Source: a bacterium | GTDB taxonomy: Bacteria; Cyanobacteriota; Vampirovibrionia; Gastranaerophilales; JBAXKC01 | Assembly (NCBI GenBank): GCA_037137535.1 | Contig: JBAXKC010000006.1 | Coordinates: 10,835 to 74,834, forward strand | Direction of reading: 5' to 3' | Length of the DNA stretch: 64,000 nucleotides | Shown: piece after piece, positions 15,445 to 23,007 of the stretch | How the letters are laid out: each line of letters starts with the position of its first letter | Numbering within the stretch: position 1 is the stretch's first letter | Notes under the pieces: model-generated | What the model was told of the DNA's origin: nothing | The model's input: only the letters and a program-made list of their open reading frames with translations | Databases searched by the model: none | Position numbers and translations under genes: made by a program

Positions 15445-16575
15445 ATGATGAATTTTGAAGAAATAAGAGAACATTTTCCTGTATGCCGTAACTTGATTTA
15501 CTTTGATAACGCAGCTGTTGCTCCAATTCATACATTAAGCATTAAATATGCTGATGATTATTTAGATCATTTTTTAAATTACGGATTTAGAGATTATGAT
15601 ACATGGTTCAATAAATACGAAGAAATAAGAGAAGGTCTTGGAAAATTTATAGGAGCTAAAAAATCTGAAATAGCTTTTATAAAAAATACTTCTGCGGGGA
15701 TTTCTGTTTTTGCAAATGGTGTGGACTTTAAAGATGGCGATAATGTTATAATTCCAAATATTGAATACCCTGCAAATGTTTATCCATGGTTAAATCTAGC
15801 ATCCAAAGGTGTTAAAACTAAGTTTTTAAAAGCTGATAACGGTTACATTGATCTTAATGCATTAAGTGCACTTATTGACTGTAATACACGAGTTCTTTCA
15901 ATCAGTTGGATAGAATTTGTAAATGGATTTAAAAATGATTTAAAAGCTATATCAGAACTTTGCATGCAAAAATCTTTAGAGTATGGAAGAAAAATTTACT
16001 TTTGTGTAGATGCTATTCAAGGCTTAGGGGCTTTTGATATTGATGTAAAGGCTTTAAATATTGACTTTTTAGCGGCTGACGGACACAAATGGTTTTTAGC
16101 TCTTGAAGGAGCAGGATTTTTATATTGTTCTGAAGACATAATTGATGAAATTAAACCTGCATCTGTGGGCTGGAAAAGTGTTGAAAATCCTTTGGATTTT
16201 ACTGATATTAATTTTACTCTTCAAAAGACAGCTAATAAATTTGAAGAAGGTACTTTAAATGTTGTTGGTATTCTTTCACTTGGTGCAAGTTTAGATCTTT
16301 TTAATTCAATAGGCATAAAGAATATTGAGGATAGAATACTCTCTCTAAGTAATTATGCAGTTGAAAAAATCTCTCAAAAAGCTGAATTGAAAAGTTATCG
16401 GCAAGAAAAGCATCGTTCGGGAATCATATCATTTGTTACAAAAGATATTGAGAAAGATTTCTTAAAGCTGCTTGCAAACAAAGTACAGCTATCAAAACGA
16501 GGCGAGATGTTAAGAATTTCTCCGCACTTCTATAATACTCATGAGGAAATTGATAGATTTGTGGATATGCTTTAA
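15445..16575 (+). CDS. Class V PLP-dependent aminotransferase-fold enzyme
   Basis: YFDNAA, EYPAN, VDAIQ, ADGHKW (PLP Lys), FEEGT, LRISPHFYN. No Cys in the C-terminal persulfide loop region. Confidence 0.88.
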   Translation: MMNFEEIREHFPVCRNLIYFDNAAVAPIHTLSIKYADDYLDHFLNYGFRDYDTWFNKYEEIREGLGKFIGAKKSEIAFIKNTSAGISVFANGVDFKDGDNVIIPNIEYPANVYPWLNLASKGVKTKFLKADNGYIDLNALSALIDCNTRVLSISWIEFVNGFKNDLKAISELCMQKSLEYGRKIYFCVDAIQGLGAFDIDVKALNIDFLAADGHKWFLALEGAGFLYCSEDIIDEIKPASVGWKSVENPLDFTDINFTLQKTANKFEEGTLNVVGILSLGASLDLFNSIGIKNIEDRILSLSNYAVEKISQKAELKSYRQEKHRSGIISFVTKDIEKDFLKLLANKVQLSKRGEMLRISPHFYNTHEEIDRFVDML

Positions 16576-16643: not shown

Positions 16644-16763
16644 GGACGATTGGGGAATACGTCCATGAGAATGAATTTGGTTTTATATAGTCAGTGCATA
16701 TTCCACTCTCACTCATAAACTGTTTTCTTAAAGATCGGATTTACTTTTCTGGTCTTTTTTTTT
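16644..16763 (+). other. Candidate structured leader or small RNA containing a 17-codon ORF (16665-16718)
   Basis: Hairpin GGACG...CGTCC enclosing GGGGAA; second imperfect stem ATGAG...CTCAT; then an intrinsic terminator. No match to a riboswitch consensus I know. Confidence 0.4.
16730..16763 (+). terminator. Rho-independent terminator upstream of the nitrogenase-like operon
   Basis: AAAGATCGGA pairs with TCTGGTCTTT (two G-U pairs), followed by a long T run. Confidence 0.75.
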
Positions 16764-16823: not shown

Positions 16824-17408
16824 ATGGAAAATAACTATCTAAAAATAAATATTGTTGATGTAAATGAAATAATTTTAAGTTTACAAACTAATAAAAATGA
16901 CTTTATAAAAAATCACATTAAACATACTAAAATTAAAAATATTGAATTTACTGTTAATAACTGTGTTTATGGGCAAGAAGTTATTTCATTTTGCTGTTTT
17001 ATTAAAATACCTGTTTGGGAATTAAAATTGAGAGAACTGCTAAAGCCATTTCAACTGATAGATTTAGGTAATCAAATATTTGAAATAAAGTTTAACGATA
17101 AACACGTTAGTTATTTAAAATATCAGAAAAATTTTGGTATATATATTTTTAATGGACGACCTGATCTCTTTTCAAAAATGAAAAAAGAGAACTTTATTAA
17201 TATAAATTATTTTGAAGAAACATTTCAAAATACCATTAATTTTGTGGAATTATTTTTAAATCTGATATATAAAGATAATATTCATTCTAAATTAGAAATA
17301 ATGCCCTCAGCTAATAGAAAAAAAACAGAAACATTGGAATATAAAAAAACAAAAGAACTTCCTGAATCACTAAAACGCTTTTATAAAAGAATTGGACACA
17401 ATCAATGA
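16824..17408 (+). CDS. Hypothetical protein, first gene of the nitrogenase-like operon
   Basis: 194-aa ORF whose stop overlaps the next start (ATGA at 17405-17408). No recognised motif. Confidence 0.65.
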   Translation: MENNYLKINIVDVNEIILSLQTNKNDFIKNHIKHTKIKNIEFTVNNCVYGQEVISFCCFIKIPVWELKLRELLKPFQLIDLGNQIFEIKFNDKHVSYLKYQKNFGIYIFNGRPDLFSKMKKENFININYFEETFQNTINFVELFLNLIYKDNIHSKLEIMPSANRKKTETLEYKKTKELPESLKRFYKRIGHNQ

Positions 17409-18250
17409 GCAAAAAAATCAGACAAATAGCTATATACGGAAAAGGCGGCATCGGAAAATCAACCACTTCTTCAAATTTAACTGCTGCGATTAGCTATATG
17501 AATTTCAACCTTGCTCAAGTCGGTTGTGACCCTAAATCTGATTCTGTTAATTCACTTGTAAAGGGTGAATTTATAAAGACTGTTTCAGATTTAGTTAGAG
17601 ATTATGGAGAAAGTGAAGAAACTTTATTAGAGTCAGTAAGGCAAGGTTTTAATAATATTTCTTGTATTGAATCAGGCGGACCAGAACCGGGACAAGGATG
17701 TGCAGGCAGAGGTGTTTTAGTTGCGCTGAATTTAATTGAAAAATATAAAATTTATAAAAAATTCAATATAGATTTTGTTGTATATGACGTACTTGGGGAT
17801 ATTGTCTGTGGTGGCTTTGCTCAGCCTGTAAGGCAAGGTTTTGCTGAAGAGATATACATTGTGACCAGCGGTGAATATATGTCGCTTTATGCGGCTAATA
17901 ATATTGCTAAAAGTATTAAATCCTTTGCTGAAAGTGGATTGAATTCCAGACTTTGCGGAATAATTGCAAACTTGAAAAATACTGAAAACGAAAAAGATAC
18001 TATTGAAGAATTCTCAAAAAAACTTAATGTTCCTGTTATACATTATGTTCCACGTTCTAAATTGGTACAGGATGCAGAATTTCAAGGAATGACAGTTATT
18101 GAGGCTTTTCCTGACTCAGAACAGGCTGAACAATACTTTGAATTGGCTCATAATATAATAAATAATACAGTTAAAAACATTCCAACTCCTTTAAATAAAG
18201 AGGAATTGCTTAATTTAACACAAAAATATAGGCAAAATTATGTCAGATAA
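17405..18250 (+). CDS. nflH: Nitrogenase iron-protein-like ATPase/reductase (NifH/BchX/BchL/CfbC family)
   Basis: YGKGGIGKSTT, GCDPKSDS, ESGGPEPGQGCAGRG, YDVLGDIVCGGFA; both [4Fe-4S] cysteines present. Confidence 0.95.
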   Translation: MSKKIRQIAIYGKGGIGKSTTSSNLTAAISYMNFNLAQVGCDPKSDSVNSLVKGEFIKTVSDLVRDYGESEETLLESVRQGFNNISCIESGGPEPGQGCAGRGVLVALNLIEKYKIYKKFNIDFVVYDVLGDIVCGGFAQPVRQGFAEEIYIVTSGEYMSLYAANNIAKSIKSFAESGLNSRLCGIIANLKNTENEKDTIEEFSKKLNVPVIHYVPRSKLVQDAEFQGMTVIEAFPDSEQAEQYFELAHNIINNTVKNIPTPLNKEELLNLTQKYRQNYVR

Positions 18251-19727
18251 AATAAAAACGAAATATAATTGGGTAAAAGTTTCTGAAATGTATGACGAAA
18301 CTCCTAATCTTAACTCCAATTATGCTAAAAATTGCACACATAAAGGCTATGAGGGTTTGTGGTGTAAACTAATTAAAGCAGTAACCTCTTATGGAATGAC
18401 CAACGACTGCGTAGCGGTAATCCATGGGCCTACTAACTGTGCCTGGGCTGTTAGGAATTTCTGTTCTACCAATTATAGCCTATATTACGGTAATTCTTTC
18501 TTGCATATGCCTACAACTGCTTTGAATAACAGTTCAATAGTAAATGGCGCTGAAAAAGAACTTATAGACACTCTAATTGAGGTGGATAAAACTTATAAAC
18601 CTCAACACATAGCAGTTTTTGATACTTGTTCTACCTCTTTAATAGGCGATAATATTCAAAATTGTATTAACGAAGCTCAATTAAAATGTGCGGCTAAAAT
18701 TAATTTTATTGAGGGAGCAGGGTTTTCTTCACCTCCATTAGGGCAATCTATTCAGGAAACTGCTGTAAAATACGGTGAAATCATGGAAAAACCTGTGCAC
18801 ATAATTCCTAAATCCGTTAATATTCTTGGACAATACAAAGAGGGGCATTGCAATAAAAAAAAGAAAAAAAGGGGTAAATATCCCGATGATGCTCAAGAGT
18901 TAGTGAGATATATCGAGGCATTAGGGCTTAATATTCATAGAGTTCTGATATCAGGCGATTATGAATATATTAAAACAGCACCAGAGGCTTTAGTAAATGT
19001 GATAAGTTGCCCAACATGGGGACTACCACTTGCTAAGACAATGAAAGACATGTTTGATACTCCTTATTTGCCGCATTCTGTTCCGACAGGCATTGAGTCA
19101 ACTTGCAGGTGGATAAGGGATTTGGCCTATTTTACGGATACGGTTGATGAAGCTGAAATTCTTATAAATAAAGAATTAGAGCTACTTAATTTGATTTTTG
19201 AAAAAGCAAAAACTCTTGTAAATGGAAAAACAGCCCTCATTGAATGTGGAAGAAATTCTATGACAGCCTTTGCAAGGCCGATGGCATTGGCAAGATTTCT
19301 TCAAGAGCTTGGAATGAAGCCGTATTTGTTCGGATTGCATCCGTTTGAGCTTAAAGCTAAAGGCATTGACCTTGATTATTTCTTGTGGGATGGCTTTAAT
19401 CCTATGATTTTAAGCGATCCGTATCATTATCAAAATCCCACTAATATTGCTAATGTGATAAAAGATCTTGAATTAAAAGAAGAAGATTATGTCTATTTTT
19501 CACAAGATGTTTTTCCTATGGCAAAATCGGGAGAGTTTGACCCGTCCTCAAATGCTAAGGTTGAAGTAAGTGTTCATTTAAGAAGAGTTTTTAATTCGCC
19601 CGGTAGAGGTGTCGGTTTTAAGGGAGCTGAAGCACTTTGTCAGAATATTATAGAGTCGGTTTTAATGGCATCAAGAAAAACAAAACCAACTCTTTATGGT
19701 AGAGTTCACGGTGAATTTTATGATTAA
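18240..19727 (+). CDS. nflD: Nitrogenase component-1-like alpha subunit (NifD-like, non-canonical)
   Basis: Cys42 (WCKL), Cys67 (HGPTNC), Cys130 (DTCSTSLIGDN), GAGF, VNILG, Cys257 (NVISC), C-terminal GFKGA. Lacks the NifD SQSLGHH motif. Confidence 0.88.
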   Translation: MSDKIKTKYNWVKVSEMYDETPNLNSNYAKNCTHKGYEGLWCKLIKAVTSYGMTNDCVAVIHGPTNCAWAVRNFCSTNYSLYYGNSFLHMPTTALNNSSIVNGAEKELIDTLIEVDKTYKPQHIAVFDTCSTSLIGDNIQNCINEAQLKCAAKINFIEGAGFSSPPLGQSIQETAVKYGEIMEKPVHIIPKSVNILGQYKEGHCNKKKKKRGKYPDDAQELVRYIEALGLNIHRVLISGDYEYIKTAPEALVNVISCPTWGLPLAKTMKDMFDTPYLPHSVPTGIESTCRWIRDLAYFTDTVDEAEILINKELELLNLIFEKAKTLVNGKTALIECGRNSMTAFARPMALARFLQELGMKPYLFGLHPFELKAKGIDLDYFLWDGFNPMILSDPYHYQNPTNIANVIKDLELKEEDYVYFSQDVFPMAKSGEFDPSSNAKVEVSVHLRRVFNSPGRGVGFKGAEALCQNIIESVLMASRKTKPTLYGRVHGEFYD

Positions 19728-21120
19728 GAATAATTTTAAAGACTTAATGCAACCCGGAAGTTTTATAGGAGCAACTTTAACTGCTTCGGGTATTAAAAAC
19801 GCCATTATAATTTTTCATGGGATTGCAGGCTGTAATATCGAGGCAATACATTTCAGATCAGACCAGATTCCGGGTGGGCATTATGTTCCTATAATACCGA
19901 CAGGTTTAAACCAGACAGATTGCCTTTATGGGGGCTATGAAAAACTTATTACCACTTTGAGGGATACTTTAAATTCTTCTATAAAACGAGGGCGACCACC
20001 AGAAGTTGTATTTATTTTTACAAGCGATGCTACTTCGATAATAGGTGATGATATAGAACGAGCCGCTAATGTTATAGAAGCTGAAACAAGTATTAAAACT
20101 ATAGCAATTGATTGTCCCGGATTTGCAGGCGGAACAGCTCATGGTTGCGATATTACGGCTGAGGCTATTTTTGAAAAATTCTTATACGAAAATAATTCTG
20201 AATTAAAGGATAAAAATGGAATTAACATAGTTTTCCCATATTTAATGGGTTCAAAAAACTGGGTTAATGACCATGATGAAATTGTAAGACTTCTTGAAGC
20301 CTGTGATGTTAAAGTAAATACAGTTTTATCAAGAAATTTAAAGATAAAAGAATTAGACAAATTTTTTAATTCTAAAGCAAATTACAATCCTTCCTCAGAG
20401 AATATCCCTTCTCTGGAAAAATATTCAGAAACTTATGACATAAAAACCATTAATAACAGCATACCTTTGCCTATTGGTATAGCAAATACCGAAGAATGGC
20501 TTGTATATATGGCAAAAAATTATGGAAATTTCGAAAAAGCTAAAGAAATTTTAAAGCAGGATGCAGATTTTATAAATTCTCAACTTAGATATAACTATAA
20601 TTTCAGCTGGATAAGCACGTTAATGCATGGAAAATATTGTTCAATTTTAGCTCATGCTAATTTTGCGGCATCACTAGCCAGATGTTTATATTGGGATTTT
20701 GGGATAATTACTAAAGTTATCGGTATTGTTGCAGAAACTCAACAGGCAATAGATAATGCTTTAGAGCTTTTAGAGCCACTTAAAGAGTTTTTTGATATGG
20801 AAATCCTTATTAATCCGACTTATCATGAATATGGTCAAATGATGACTTCTAAAAACGTTGATTTTTCTATTGGGGCAATTCAAGATAAACCTTTATCTTT
20901 GGGATTAAAAGTGCCTCATTTATCTCTTGGTGGATATTACTTTTATAATCAATATAATTTTATTCCTTATCCAAATATGGGAATAAGAGGAGTATTAGGA
21001 ATTATTACAGAACTATCAAGAGTTTTAGAAGATGCTTTTTATTTAAAAGATATGTTGTCTGAATATTCATACAAGGGCAGGGAGGAAAATATTGAAAGCA
21101 GCTGTTCTACACCAAAATAA
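19720..21120 (+). CDS. nflK: Nitrogenase component-1-like beta subunit (NifK/BchZ-like, non-canonical)
   Basis: QPGSFIGA, HGIAGC, YGGYEKL, TSDATSIIGDD, CPGFAGG, PIGIANTEEW, PNMGIRG; only one of the three NifK P-cluster Cys. The ATG at 19720 overlaps the upstream stop. Confidence 0.87.
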   Translation: MIKNNFKDLMQPGSFIGATLTASGIKNAIIIFHGIAGCNIEAIHFRSDQIPGGHYVPIIPTGLNQTDCLYGGYEKLITTLRDTLNSSIKRGRPPEVVFIFTSDATSIIGDDIERAANVIEAETSIKTIAIDCPGFAGGTAHGCDITAEAIFEKFLYENNSELKDKNGINIVFPYLMGSKNWVNDHDEIVRLLEACDVKVNTVLSRNLKIKELDKFFNSKANYNPSSENIPSLEKYSETYDIKTINNSIPLPIGIANTEEWLVYMAKNYGNFEKAKEILKQDADFINSQLRYNYNFSWISTLMHGKYCSILAHANFAASLARCLYWDFGIITKVIGIVAETQQAIDNALELLEPLKEFFDMEILINPTYHEYGQMMTSKNVDFSIGAIQDKPLSLGLKVPHLSLGGYYFYNQYNFIPYPNMGIRGVLGIITELSRVLEDAFYLKDMLSEYSYKGREENIESSCSTPK

Positions 21121-22114
21121 TAATTTTTTAACGATAGAAGAAGTCGAGCTTCCTCTAATTAATGATGATGAAATTCTTGTAAAAGTAATCGCATGTGGTG
21201 TTTGCCATACAGATTTGCACTATATAGATCATGGAGTGGATACTTTTCAATCAAAGCCTGTTATTTTAGGGCATGAAATATCTGGAATAGTTGAAGATAG
21301 TAAATCAGAGTATTTTGAAATTGGTGATAAAGTCTTATTACCTGCTGTTTACACCTGTGGAGAATGTTCATTCTGCTTGAAAGGAAGAGAAAACCTATGT
21401 AAAAACTTTACTATGCTTGGTAATTCTATCAATGGAGGCTTTGCCGAATATATTAAAGTAAAAGCAAAAGATTCTATAAAACTTCCTGATTCTATGCTTT
21501 TAGAGGAAAGTTGCATCATTGCAGATGCTGTTTCAACCCCATATTATGCAGTTGTACACAGAGCTAAAGTTGCAAAATATGAAAATGTTTTAATAGTAGG
21601 TTGTGGTGGTGTTGGAATAAATGCTGTTCAAATTGCTTCAATGCTTGGGGCAAATGTAATAGCGTGTGATATTAATGATAATAAGCTGAAAATTGCCAAA
21701 GAATTAGGTGCAAAACATACAGTGAACTTGGCAAAAGATGATTTAAAAACGTTCTTAAAAGATAATAAAATTACTATAAATAAAGCGTTTGAAATAATCG
21801 GGCAGCCCAAAACGATTGAGCTGGCTTATAAAATGTTAGGAGTTGGCGGAAAACTTTGTATAATTGGCTATACTAATCAAAATATCAATATAAATCCTGC
21901 TAAAATTATGTTCTATGAGCAAGAAATAATTGGCTCATGCGGATGTCCTCCACGAATATATCCTGAAATTATTGAATTGGTTGAAAAAGGTAAATTAAAT
22001 CTATCAAAAGTGATAAATAATAAATACTCTCTGGATGCTGTTAATAAAGCTTTTGACGAGCTAAGAAGCGGAAAGATTCTGCGTAATATCATCTTGCCTA
22101 ATAGTAAAATATAG
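21092..22114 (+). CDS. Zn-dependent medium-chain dehydrogenase, 6-hydroxycyclohex-1-ene-1-carbonyl-CoA dehydrogenase (Had/BamQ)-like
   Basis: CGVCHTDLHYIDHGV, GHE, structural Zn CGECSFC...C, ADAVSTPY, GCGGVG, GCPPRIYP. TTG start with GGAGG RBS overlapping nflK. MDR family is certain; the Had subfamily call rests on recalled motifs. Confidence 0.85.
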   Translation: MKAAVLHQNNNFLTIEEVELPLINDDEILVKVIACGVCHTDLHYIDHGVDTFQSKPVILGHEISGIVEDSKSEYFEIGDKVLLPAVYTCGECSFCLKGRENLCKNFTMLGNSINGGFAEYIKVKAKDSIKLPDSMLLEESCIIADAVSTPYYAVVHRAKVAKYENVLIVGCGGVGINAVQIASMLGANVIACDINDNKLKIAKELGAKHTVNLAKDDLKTFLKDNKITINKAFEIIGQPKTIELAYKMLGVGGKLCIIGYTNQNININPAKIMFYEQEIIGSCGCPPRIYPEIIELVEKGKLNLSKVINNKYSLDAVNKAFDELRSGKILRNIILPNSKI

Positions 22115-22233
22115 TCTTTAGCCAGAAATATATTACTCTATCTGATAAGCTACTGGCTAATTTGAAATTTAAGATATATCTGAAAAAATATTGTTGGCTC
22201 AAACTATGAGCATTAAATATTTTAGAGGGTGAA

Positions 22234-22953
22234 ATGGTAGAAGTATTAGATAAATCGATTGCAAGCATGTTAATTAATTCAGAAATTCAAATTATAGATT
22301 GTCGGATTGAATTTATTACTTATCTAAAACAAATTTTTATAAAAAACTTAGCTAGGGCTGTTGATTGGAATAAAATTTTTGATTTTAGTCTTAATTTTCT
22401 CTTGAAAATGAACTTAATTTCTATAAAAGTTAAAAATATAGAAAATTTAAGTTTTGCTCAGGCTAAATATCCGGATATTTATTATTGCCTACAAGGAAGA
22501 ACTTTAGATTTAATAATAAGTTATATTTTATCAAAACATGTTATTTGCTCTCAGATGATGTTGAATTTTGATAGTAAAAAAGAACTTAATGAAGCAAATA
22601 ATTTATATTCTTGCATAGAATTTCTTAGAAGAAATAAAGGTTCTGTATGGGTTGGTATTGATAAAAAACCTACTGATAAAATAGCAGAAGCTTATTCTTA
22701 TGGTGATAATATGTCGTATATTTGCTCAAATCTAAGCGGAATAAATATATTACCGATTTCTCATAAATTTAAAATAAGTAAAAAAATTGAGATATATTTT
22801 GAAGTTGGTAAACCAATAATATTAGGCTCAAATGATTTCAATGAAGAAGAACTGTCTGCTATATTTGAACAAGAAATTAAATCATTAGCCAATCAACAAA
22901 AAGAACAAATTATTAATAATGATTTTAGCGGTTATGATTATTCTTTAATATAA
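22234..22953 (+). CDS. Hypothetical protein, possibly a degenerate lysophospholipid acyltransferase (PlsC-like) fold
   Basis: GAGGGTG RBS. The C-half (ILPIS..., EIYFEVGKPI, ...IINNDFSGYD) resembles LPLAT C-termini, but the HxxxxD position reads QGRTLD. Confidence 0.5.
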   Translation: MVEVLDKSIASMLINSEIQIIDCRIEFITYLKQIFIKNLARAVDWNKIFDFSLNFLLKMNLISIKVKNIENLSFAQAKYPDIYYCLQGRTLDLIISYILSKHVICSQMMLNFDSKKELNEANNLYSCIEFLRRNKGSVWVGIDKKPTDKIAEAYSYGDNMSYICSNLSGINILPISHKFKISKKIEIYFEVGKPIILGSNDFNEEELSAIFEQEIKSLANQQKEQIINNDFSGYDYSLI

Positions 22954-22962
22954 TTTCTTCAT

Positions 22963-23007
22963 AAAAAAGAGTTTTGCCATTTTCTTTTATGCAAAACTCT
23001 TTTTTTT
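22963..23007. terminator. Bidirectional terminator
   Basis: AAAAAAGAGTTTTGC / GCAAAACTCTTTTTT between convergent genes; closes the nfl locus. Confidence 0.8.

Follow-up and report, generated by a model that had tools for sequence, protein, structure and literature searches.

What reaction does a nitrogenase-like enzyme catalyse in a bacterium of the order Gastranaerophilales? The question is raised by a 64,000-nucleotide stretch of contig JBAXKC010000006.1 (assembly GCA_037137535.1), hereafter the window, in which ORF calls and translations confirmed six open reading frames on the plus strand between positions 16824 and 22953. These are, in order, orf1, nflH, nflD, nflK, the gene of a medium-chain dehydrogenase/reductase (MDR) and a sixth co-oriented gene, orf6. 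Beyond N2 fixation, the reduction of chlorophyll and F430 rings and the cleavage of C-S bonds, hardly any function has been assigned to the nitrogenase family, and the part of a 2026 review cited here (PMC13474568) names the uncharacterised nitrogenase-like (NFL) clades as the main gap in the field. The Nfl clade looks catalytic yet NifEN-like, keeps a NifB-like protein, and recurs with a dehydrogenase and two crotonases; tentatively, we propose that it reduces a cyclic or aromatic acyl-CoA.

All three proteins pass the Pfam cut-offs of the nitrogenase superfamily: NflH matches PF00142 (321.9 bits, E 4.6e-96), while NflD (159.3 bits, E 1.7e-46) and NflK (171.3 bits, E 3.9e-50) match PF00148, for which the cut-off is 28.6 bits. 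The NflH translation, inspected by eye, carries a Walker A and two cluster-Cys motifs; it scores 371.5 bits with the nifH model TIGR01287 (cut-off 394.35) and 350 bits with CfbC (cut-off 402). The equivalog scores of the other subunits fall much further below their thresholds: NflD reaches 109.2 bits with nifE (cut-off 505.1) and 73.5 with nifD (653.55), NflK reaches 48.6 with nifK (427.3), and BchB (62 bits, cut-off 490), BchN (19, cut-off 420) and CfbD (41, cut-off 268) are all far below. Neither the equivalog scores of a true nitrogenase nor nifEN genes were found in the genome.

The limits of the family are sharp. The identity of NflD to its homologues runs from 81% down to 38% (E 1e-102) and then drops to 26% (E 1e-17), and a profile search of 1.84 billion representatives returned approximately 20 full-length clusters (counted at 50% identity) with 385-852 bits, followed by a next match at 230 bits and a long tail. 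Among solved structures the best relative of NflD is NifE (59 bits, E 2.4e-15), with Rhodospirillum rubrum MarD at 39 bits, whereas that of NflK is MarD at 62 bits; two basal members of the NflD family (P0096 and P0098) score 69-74 bits on MarD, so that no close similarity to MarD or MarK exists anywhere in these comparisons. The MarDK structures are PDB 9D9U and 9FMG (PMC13474568, in the part cited). A tblastn search of plasmids with NflD gave 250 records, the best being a Nostoc VnfE (30% identity, E 5e-36), and NifE is annotated under most of the 40 matches listed.

A tree (FastTree, LG+gamma, 153 sequences, 454 columns) was built from 126 of the 150 best representatives, those shorter than 380 or longer than 620 amino acids being left out; to these were added 14 Nfl sequences and, from four plasmid records, 13 named Nif/Vnf proteins. 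Its labels come from these plasmid records and from PDB scores, the named references being Nif and Vnf proteins. NflD is monophyletic with a support of 1.0, and beside it (0.97) stands a small sister clade containing the Nostoc plasmid VnfE; canonical NifE is placed elsewhere, with NifD and VnfD. NflK is likewise monophyletic (1.0), with an unresolved position. Judged by its sequence, then, NflD is not MarD, NifD or canonical NifE. The first-pass annotation of this DNA had described a nitrogenase-like, ATP-driven reductase and had asked whether D and K would fall inside a characterised clade; in these comparisons both lie outside, and that description stands.

The VnfE in question, from a plasmid of Nostoc sp. 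C052 (L150:11968-15225, after vnfDGK), groups beside Nfl rather than with canonical NifE, and this grouping may be a case of long-branch attraction.

Four cysteines, Cys42, Cys67, Cys130 and Cys257, are invariant in 27/27 NflD homologues and, in an alignment with named NifD, NifE and VnfE proteins, occupy the positions of NifD Cys62, Cys88, Cys154 and Cys275. The last of these is the ligand position of the iron-molybdenum cofactor (FeMo-co) and of the NifE L-cluster. The same 27 homologues share no invariant histidine. In place of NifD Gln191 and His195, NflD has Leu and Ile, as had been anticipated from the earlier observation that this region is missing from NflD, and the His442 column could not be aligned. 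At the three P-cluster positions of NifK, NflK has Gly, Cys46 and Asp111, where the Sinorhizobium NifN has Ser, Cys and Ala. Cys46 is found in 11/11 aligned NflK proteins and Asp111 in 10/11; the exception is G204 (genomes, contigs, loci and families are cited here by our G, C, L and f numbers), the most divergent member, which has Cys there and keeps all three cysteines at the NifK positions and all six P-cluster cysteines.

The six P-cluster cysteines of a true nitrogenase are consequently present as three of three in NflD and one of three in NflK in 10/11 members, and of the FeMo-co ligand set the Cys275 equivalent is kept, with no invariant histidine. What the alignments with named NifE, NifN and VnfE proteins do contain is the pattern of NifEN and VnfEN: three interface cysteines in D, one in K, and the L-cluster cysteine. 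The ligand pattern deduced from the sequences is therefore NifEN-like. In Azotobacter vinelandii NifEN the 3+1 arrangement binds a [4Fe-4S] cluster. Separately, NflD has a variable insertion (window 18850-18885, residues ~205-215, columns 213-240 of alignment A1) which is 8-30 residues long, rich in Lys, Gly and Cys, and contains paired cysteines in some members.

The genome of the window (G000) amounts to 2.95 Mb on 81 contigs and is, by marker genes, 100% complete; it contains a single D, a single K and a single strong H gene, nflD and nflK being its only two PF00148 genes. It had been stated that the locus lacks nifENB, bch and cfb genes. This holds, in that family scans of the window proteins found none of them, but a NifB-like gene is present elsewhere in the genome (C15:3716-4489). 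Its product, found with the NifB of the distant relative G201 as query, is a radical-SAM-only protein of 258 amino acids scoring 239.9 bits with TIGR01290 (E 4.5e-71), the next model being MoaA at 59 bits; no NifX-type domain was found in G000. In G201 (L010) the gene order is crotonase, GNAT, nflH, nifB, a NifX-like gene, nflD and nflK, and the nifB between nflH and nflD encodes a radical SAM plus NifX protein (TIGR01290, 370 bits). Since the NifB-like gene and two crotonase genes, all on contig C15, share the distribution of the nfl genes and are linked to them in other genomes, the operon cannot be called self-contained, as the first-pass annotation had it. As an aside, the Gastranaerophilales genome G004 (C289:43230-50468; L043, L087) has a second PF00148-like gene set beside a 414-amino acid NifB; this set is probably a genuine nif cluster and distinct from Nfl.

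The distribution of these genes was surveyed in 201 genomes of the order, with thresholds picked after the score gaps had been seen. NflD occurs in 15/201: in G000, the only f1 genome sampled, in 12/12 of family f5 and in 2/3 of f6, as against 0/167 in f3. An MDR orthologue (58-65% identity) is present in 13/14 of the other NflD-positive genomes, once as a fragment, and is missing from G045, which is 70% complete. The NifB-like protein, a crotonase resembling cyclohexa-1,5-dienecarbonyl-CoA hydratase (Dch) and a second crotonase with a zinc ribbon are each found in 10/14, the last at 77-81% identity and thus the best conserved of all. At the thresholds used, none of the four was found in the 186 NflD-negative genomes, in which the best MDR paralogue has at most 35% identity (E 8.4e-44 at best). 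G020, an Nfl-less member of f6 (88% complete), is missing all four. In four distant NflD-positive genomes outside the order, the NifB-like protein is found in 4/4, the MDR in 3/4 (47-51%) and the second crotonase in 2/4 (66-69%).

Gene linkage agrees with this distribution. The order H-D-K-MDR is found in the window, G005, L163 and L170, D-K-MDR in L173 and K-MDR in G013; an acyltransferase gene follows the MDR in G005, L163, L170 and G013. That the MDR linkage might recur was proposed at the outset, and it does, through adjacency to nflK in five other loci and genomes as well as through the orthologues. Identical longest-contig sizes suggest that seven NflD and seven MDR matches lie on the same contigs. 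The two crotonase genes are in tandem in G000, G005 and G019, a crotonase adjoins the NifB-like gene in G202 and G203, and the MDR adjoins a crotonase in G204. The nfl genes themselves are often scattered, nflK being unlinked to H-D in five of the genomes searched. A 4HBT thioesterase gene is near nfl genes in five loci, while sulfur-assimilation and transporter genes were not found beside them in the annotated loci.

Several other genes were noted in these neighbourhoods. A gene for a Fur-family regulator and the 4HBT thioesterase gene form a conserved pair (L069:1330-2373; G000:C16:15897-16735), which is beside the Nfl-MDR-acyltransferase block in G005, G013, L163 and L170 and elsewhere in G000. 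In four f5 loci (L072:10042-10398, L075, L079, L081) the gene after the MDR orthologue is QueD/PTPS; it was treated as lineage synteny, as were genes for a sigma factor, thioredoxin, LepA and similar proteins, and none is retained as a partner. A 300-amino acid gene with a prepilin-type N-terminus and no Pfam family follows nflK in seven loci of one lineage (L161:5821-6765 and six more) and was judged unrelated. In G025 (f5) an in-frame TGA breaks the NflK match in two (G025:C8:48187-49377; L041/L042), and the zinc-ribbon crotonase orthologue (G025:C7:40410-41246) carries a TAA; the two stops could reflect joint decay of a pathway or assembly error.

The partner enzymes offer candidates for the substrate. 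The operon's dehydrogenase has the zinc-dependent MDR domains ADH_N and ADH_zinc_N, and its best curated model is Had (6-hydroxycyclohex-1-ene-1-carbonyl-CoA dehydrogenase, TIGR03201) with 268.8 bits, 71 bits ahead of the next model (197 bits) and below the cut-off of 338.65. The earlier label of Had-like holds only to a moderate degree, the score being under the cut-off and an ordinary alcohol dehydrogenase being equal to Had among solved structures. Dch (TIGR03189) is the best model for the crotonases of G201, G202 and G203 (165, 142 and 139 bits); its cut-off of 292.5 is not reached by any of the scores (135-165 bits). The second G000 crotonase, of 317 amino acids, is encoded directly upstream of the Dch-like one (C15:31021-31770) and has a C-terminal zinc ribbon, scored on the G005 orthologue. 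The orthologues in G005 and G019 reach 194 and 191 bits with MenB, 192 and 186 with BadI, and 182 and 177 with Oah, all far below the cut-offs (467.6 for BadI, TIGR03210, and 464.45 for Oah, TIGR03200), and the best solved relative is MenB (163 bits). A gene of the AOR family (BamB-type) was not found in G000, where matches to HGD-D score only 21-29 bits; no conventional or rival ring reductase is evident in this genome.

The enzymology of the anaerobic benzoyl-CoA pathway is well established: an ATP-driven reductase is followed by a hydratase (Dch, BadK), a Zn-MDR (Had, BadH) and a ring hydrolase (Oah, BadI). The Nfl set could follow the same logic, with a nitrogenase-like enzyme taking the part of benzoyl-CoA reductase, and this is the function that we favour, tentatively and as a possibility short of an even chance. 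NflH, NflD and NflK would make up a nitrogenase-family reductase with two components, driven by ATP and working at low potential. Where D and K meet, three cysteines of NflD and one of NflK would ligate a [4Fe-4S]-type cluster, as in NifEN. A second, L-cluster-like cluster, made by the stand-alone radical-SAM NifB-like protein, would be bound at NflD Cys257. The predicted substrate is the CoA thioester of a cyclic, aromatic or otherwise conjugated acid; the Dch-like crotonase would add water to the reduced product, the NAD-type Zn dehydrogenase of the operon would oxidise it, and the ring would then be opened hydrolytically by the BadI/Oah/MenB-like crotonase. The order and direction of these steps are proposed by analogy rather than observed. 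What was observed directly is the family membership, the pattern of ligands, and the co-occurrence and linkage of the genes.

A number of points weigh against this proposal. Every resemblance to the pathway enzymes is below the curated cut-off. The dehydrogenase scores level on Bacillus alcohol dehydrogenase (1RJW, 193 bits) and on Had (7QUY, 185 bits), and its family numbers 3780 proteins at E<=1e-40, many of them in other phyla; being far wider than Nfl, it does not need Nfl. The first G000 crotonase scores 135 bits with Dch and 138 with generic enoyl-CoA hydratase. Linkage is incomplete, in that the MDR is adjacent in 3/11 metagenome loci that reach ~1 kb or more past nflK, and no MDR homologue (nor any of orf1 or orf6) is within reach in the first set of 16 loci. 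The neighbourhoods of the genes yielded neither a CoA ligase nor a CoA transferase. Nor was the NifB-like protein found in G012, G013, G035 and G043, one of which is 97% complete. The co-occurrence is confounded by descent, since all positive genomes belong to f1, f5 and f6; the counts overstate independence because the genomes are kin, and only one Nfl-less genome within these families (G020) and one control gene bear on the matter. Finally there is the cost in ATP. Taking the figure of 4 ATP per 2 electrons for dark-operative protochlorophyllide oxidoreductase (DPOR; PMC13474568, section 2.3, in the part cited), the expense, should it apply here, argues against a catabolic role in a fermenter and in favour of a low-flux or biosynthetic role, or of the reverse direction.

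Were the substrate instead an organosulfur compound (or one with another carbon-heteroatom bond), cleaved reductively for sulfur acquisition as by methylthio-alkane reductase (MAR) or isethionate reductase (ISR), the part of the dehydrogenase would be to form or to consume an intermediate with a hydroxy or aldehyde group. We regard this as rather unlikely. It is attractive in that, according to sections 2.3.5-2.3.6 and 9.4 of the review (PMC13474568), no characterised NFL system other than MAR and ISR has a NifB homologue, and G000 possesses one unlinked to the operon, and in that the ISR protein IsrB is radical-SAM-only, like the NifB-like protein here. MarBHDK (Group IV-C) resembles Nfl further in a cysteine at the FeMo-co Cys position and an organic substrate (same review, in the part cited), and among solved structures MarD ranks first both for NflK and for the basal family members. 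According to the passages of the mBio 2026 paper used here, sulfur genes adjoin nearly all systems of Groups IV-A, D, E and F, and a SufS-like class-V aminotransferase gene is directly upstream of orf1. Against these stand the low Mar scores (39-74 bits) and the lack of a sulfur gene context for Nfl in the annotated loci; the aminotransferase gene is behind a terminator and differs in phyletic pattern, and the recurring partners are CoA-ester enzymes. MarDK also has a P-cluster and a His ligand, whereas NflK is without two of the three cysteines and NflD is without a conserved His. IsrBHDK (Group IV-F) has, like Nfl, four cysteines at the six P-cluster positions, but section 9.4 of the review places them at NifD-88 and NifK-70, 95 and 153 only, with no Cys275 equivalent. 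The ISR pattern of one cysteine in D and three in K is therefore the reverse of that of Nfl.

The affinity of NflD to NifE might mean that Nfl is a non-catalytic scaffold, on which NifB-like, NflH and NflDK mature an L-cluster-type cofactor for another, unrelated enzyme. The PDB, NCBIfam and plasmid searches all give NifE or VnfE as the closest named protein, the VnfE-containing clade is the sister in the tree, the 3+1 cysteines match those of Sinorhizobium NifE and NifN, and the L-cluster cysteine is kept without a His ligand; like Nfl, NifEN works with NifB and an Fe-protein, and L-like clusters are now known outside nitrogenase (PMC13474568, in the part cited). We nevertheless consider a scaffold decidedly unlikely. 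There is no NifDK to serve in G000, nor any other PF00148 protein to take the cofactor; NflD is only 30% identical to VnfE and reaches less than a quarter of the nifE cut-off; and G204 keeps six P-cluster cysteines, as catalytic enzymes do. The linkage of Nfl to a dehydrogenase and crotonases, rather than to nif genes, would also be left unexplained.

An unusual nitrogenase or other small-molecule reductase (of N2, or of acetylene-like or CO-like compounds), as proposed for the Group IV-A Nfa proteins, the CoA genes merely sharing ancestry with it, is very improbable. The content of an NfaBHDK-type system (B, H, D and K) is present, NflH is only 23 bits under the nifH cut-off, and NifEN with NifH reduces N2 at very low turnover (PMC13474568, in the part cited). 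However, two of the three NifK P-cluster cysteines, Gln191, His195 and a conserved His ligand are all missing, PII, nifV and nifEN were not found beside the system, and the linkage with CoA enzymes in several lineages would again go unexplained. A tetrapyrrole or cofactor ring reductase, as DPOR, chlorophyllide oxidoreductase (COR), CfbCD or the proposed Group VI, has least to commend it and can be given little chance, for although NFL systems with a [4Fe-4S] cluster alone all reduce tetrapyrroles and the Asp of NflK at a cluster-ligand position recalls BchB, porphobilinogen synthase (ALAD) was not found in the marker-complete G000 genome, the BchN, BchB, BchY, BchZ and CfbD models are far under their cut-offs, no radical-SAM suite was found nearby, and a NifB-like protein and the Cys275 equivalent are present, both of which DPOR and Group VI are without (PMC13474568, section 2.3.2 for DPOR, in the part cited).

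The comparison with known systems places Nfl apart from each characterised one. The same genome content and model scores separate it from DPOR and COR (Group V) and from CfbCD (IV-B). Group VI (Elusimicrobia, Meheust et al. 2020), compared by its description, is likewise uncharacterised, from uncultured groundwater bacteria and with at most four cysteines at P-cluster positions, but has radical-SAM neighbours (PMC13474568, section 7, in the part cited). As regards the benzoyl-CoA systems, Dch, Had and BadI/Oah are the best or near-best models for the Nfl partners; the reductase, however, is of the nitrogenase family and not BcrABCD or BamB, the partners are below the equivalog cut-offs, and the genes are scattered. 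The nif genes of the Melainabacterium ACD20 are a group III nifHDKENB set, according to the part of Di Rienzi (2013) cited, and constitute a different system.

No description of the Nfl system was found in the literature on Melainabacteria nitrogenase-like genes, or on nitrogenase-like proteins with benzoyl-CoA, enoyl-CoA hydratase or Group IV. Of the classes screened in the mBio 2026 paper, the passages used here give six as examples; searching the paper for Melainabacteria or Cyanobacteria returned no mention of either, and searching the review (PMC13474568) returned none of Melainabacteria. It is doubtful, but worth stating, that Nfl is the first nitrogenase-family reductase of an aromatic or alicyclic acyl-CoA ring, which would make it a third class of benzoyl-CoA-type dearomatising enzyme, independent in its evolution, NifEN-like, with a NifB-made iron-sulfur-carbide cluster as catalyst, and found in the sister lineage of the cyanobacteria that does not photosynthesise. 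If the acyl-CoA proposal is true, L-cluster chemistry would be extended to the reduction of thioester C=C bonds and aromatic rings, and a new route of anaerobic ring metabolism would be added. The system bears on the idea of NifEN-like proteins as early catalysts and corrects the view which equates Melainabacterial nif-like genes with N2 fixation. Since the set of partner enzymes is reproducible, a concrete list of substrates can be tested.

The host had been described as a non-photosynthetic relative of the cyanobacteria, and with this we agree: it is a Melainabacteria/Gastranaerophilales genome, and the named NflD relatives are all from metagenome-assembled genomes of Melainabacteria, Gastranaerophilales or "Cyanobacteriota", bar a few evidently mislabelled records. 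The DNA of the window is found in freshwater metagenome runs, and there is no RNA run among those listed.

The features of the operon and its borders are collected in Table 1.

Table 1. Genes of the nfl operon and the hairpins that border it; positions are those of the window.
Feature	Position	Strand	Remarks
Terminator-like hairpin followed by a T-run	16730..16757	+	3' end of the upstream aminotransferase gene; 5' limit of the operon
orf1, 194 aa	16824..17408	+	Without known family; 4-nt overlap couples translation to nflH
nflH, Fe-protein (ATPase, electron donor), 281 aa	17405..18250	+	PF00142
nflD, catalytic alpha-like subunit, 495 aa	18240..19727	+	PF00148; Cys42, Cys67, Cys130, Cys257
nflK, beta-like subunit, 474 aa	19696..21120	+	PF00148; Cys46, Asp111
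Zn-dependent MDR dehydrogenase, 340 aa, TTG start	21092..22114	+	ADH_N, ADH_zinc_N; nearest curated model Had
orf6, 239 aa, diverged member of a PlsC-type acyltransferase family	22234..22953	+	Homology to the G005/G013 gene
Strong hairpin with A-run and T-run flanks	22963..23005		Two-way terminator between the operon and a convergent pentapeptide-repeat gene

The overlapping genes, the co-oriented sixth gene and the bracketing terminators seen on first reading were all borne out by the ORF coordinates and the folding of the hairpins. As annotated, the overlaps between the first five genes are 4, 11, 32 and 29 nt. Since the NflK homologues begin at an internal Met, the true start of nflK is probably near 19720, which would reduce the nflD/nflK overlap to 8 nt, while the TTG start of the dehydrogenase gene is supported by the alignment of homologues from residue 1 onwards. 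A gap of 119 nt with a GAGGG ribosome site precedes orf6. When compared with shuffled sequences the upstream hairpin (-10.8 kcal/mol, z -5.5) and the downstream one (-16.3 kcal/mol, z -6.4) were each matched by 0/200 shuffles; a consensus terminator scan picked up the former but missed the latter because its loop is long.

The orf1 protein has no match in Pfam or NCBIfam. It had been called an orphan, which no longer applies: it has two full-length homologues of 194 amino acids (46-48% identity, with strongly conserved blocks) and one fragment, though none in the 200 other genomes of the order. It contains two adjacent cysteines and a conserved basic C-terminal helix and is possibly a conserved accessory protein. 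An AlphaFold model on the three-sequence alignment had a predicted local distance difference test score (pLDDT) of 38.6, and the best score in an Atlas search was 0.77, with TM-scores of at most 0.41; neither assigned a fold. Only a short motif is common to orf1 and to the ORFs upstream of nflH in G202 and G203 (BLASTP E 0.72, hhalign probability 0.7%); a loose motif scan matched many unrelated proteins and was dropped. ORFs found directly 5' of nflH at L012:7283-8146 (287 amino acids) and L013:7374-8141 (255 amino acids), in two distant genomes, are mutually homologous (E 3e-8), and each has twice the PExLKR-type motif with which orf1 ends.

The window copy of orf6 has no family match in Pfam or NCBIfam, but is 26-27% identical to the gene in the same place in G005 and G013, which matches PF01553. 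The description of the sixth gene as acyltransferase-like therefore holds as to a PlsC-type family but probably not as to membership in the system: weak homologues occur in 74/201 genomes, and because the family is also present in Nfl-less families of the order, orf6 is probably, from this distribution of sequences, a passenger that is not specific to the Nfl system.

Downstream of the operon are genes for a pentapeptide-repeat protein, two LuxR-type response regulators and a glycosyltransferase, and upstream are MurT, a GAF-GGDEF protein and the SufS-like class-V aminotransferase (window 15445-16575); all were judged unrelated. The aminotransferase gene, which is separated from the operon by a terminator, served as the neighbouring control gene. 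It is found in 3/3 genomes of f4, 3/3 of f6 (including G020) and 3/12 of f5, four of these genomes being Nfl-less, and since its distribution differs and the terminator intervenes it was rejected as a NifS-type partner.

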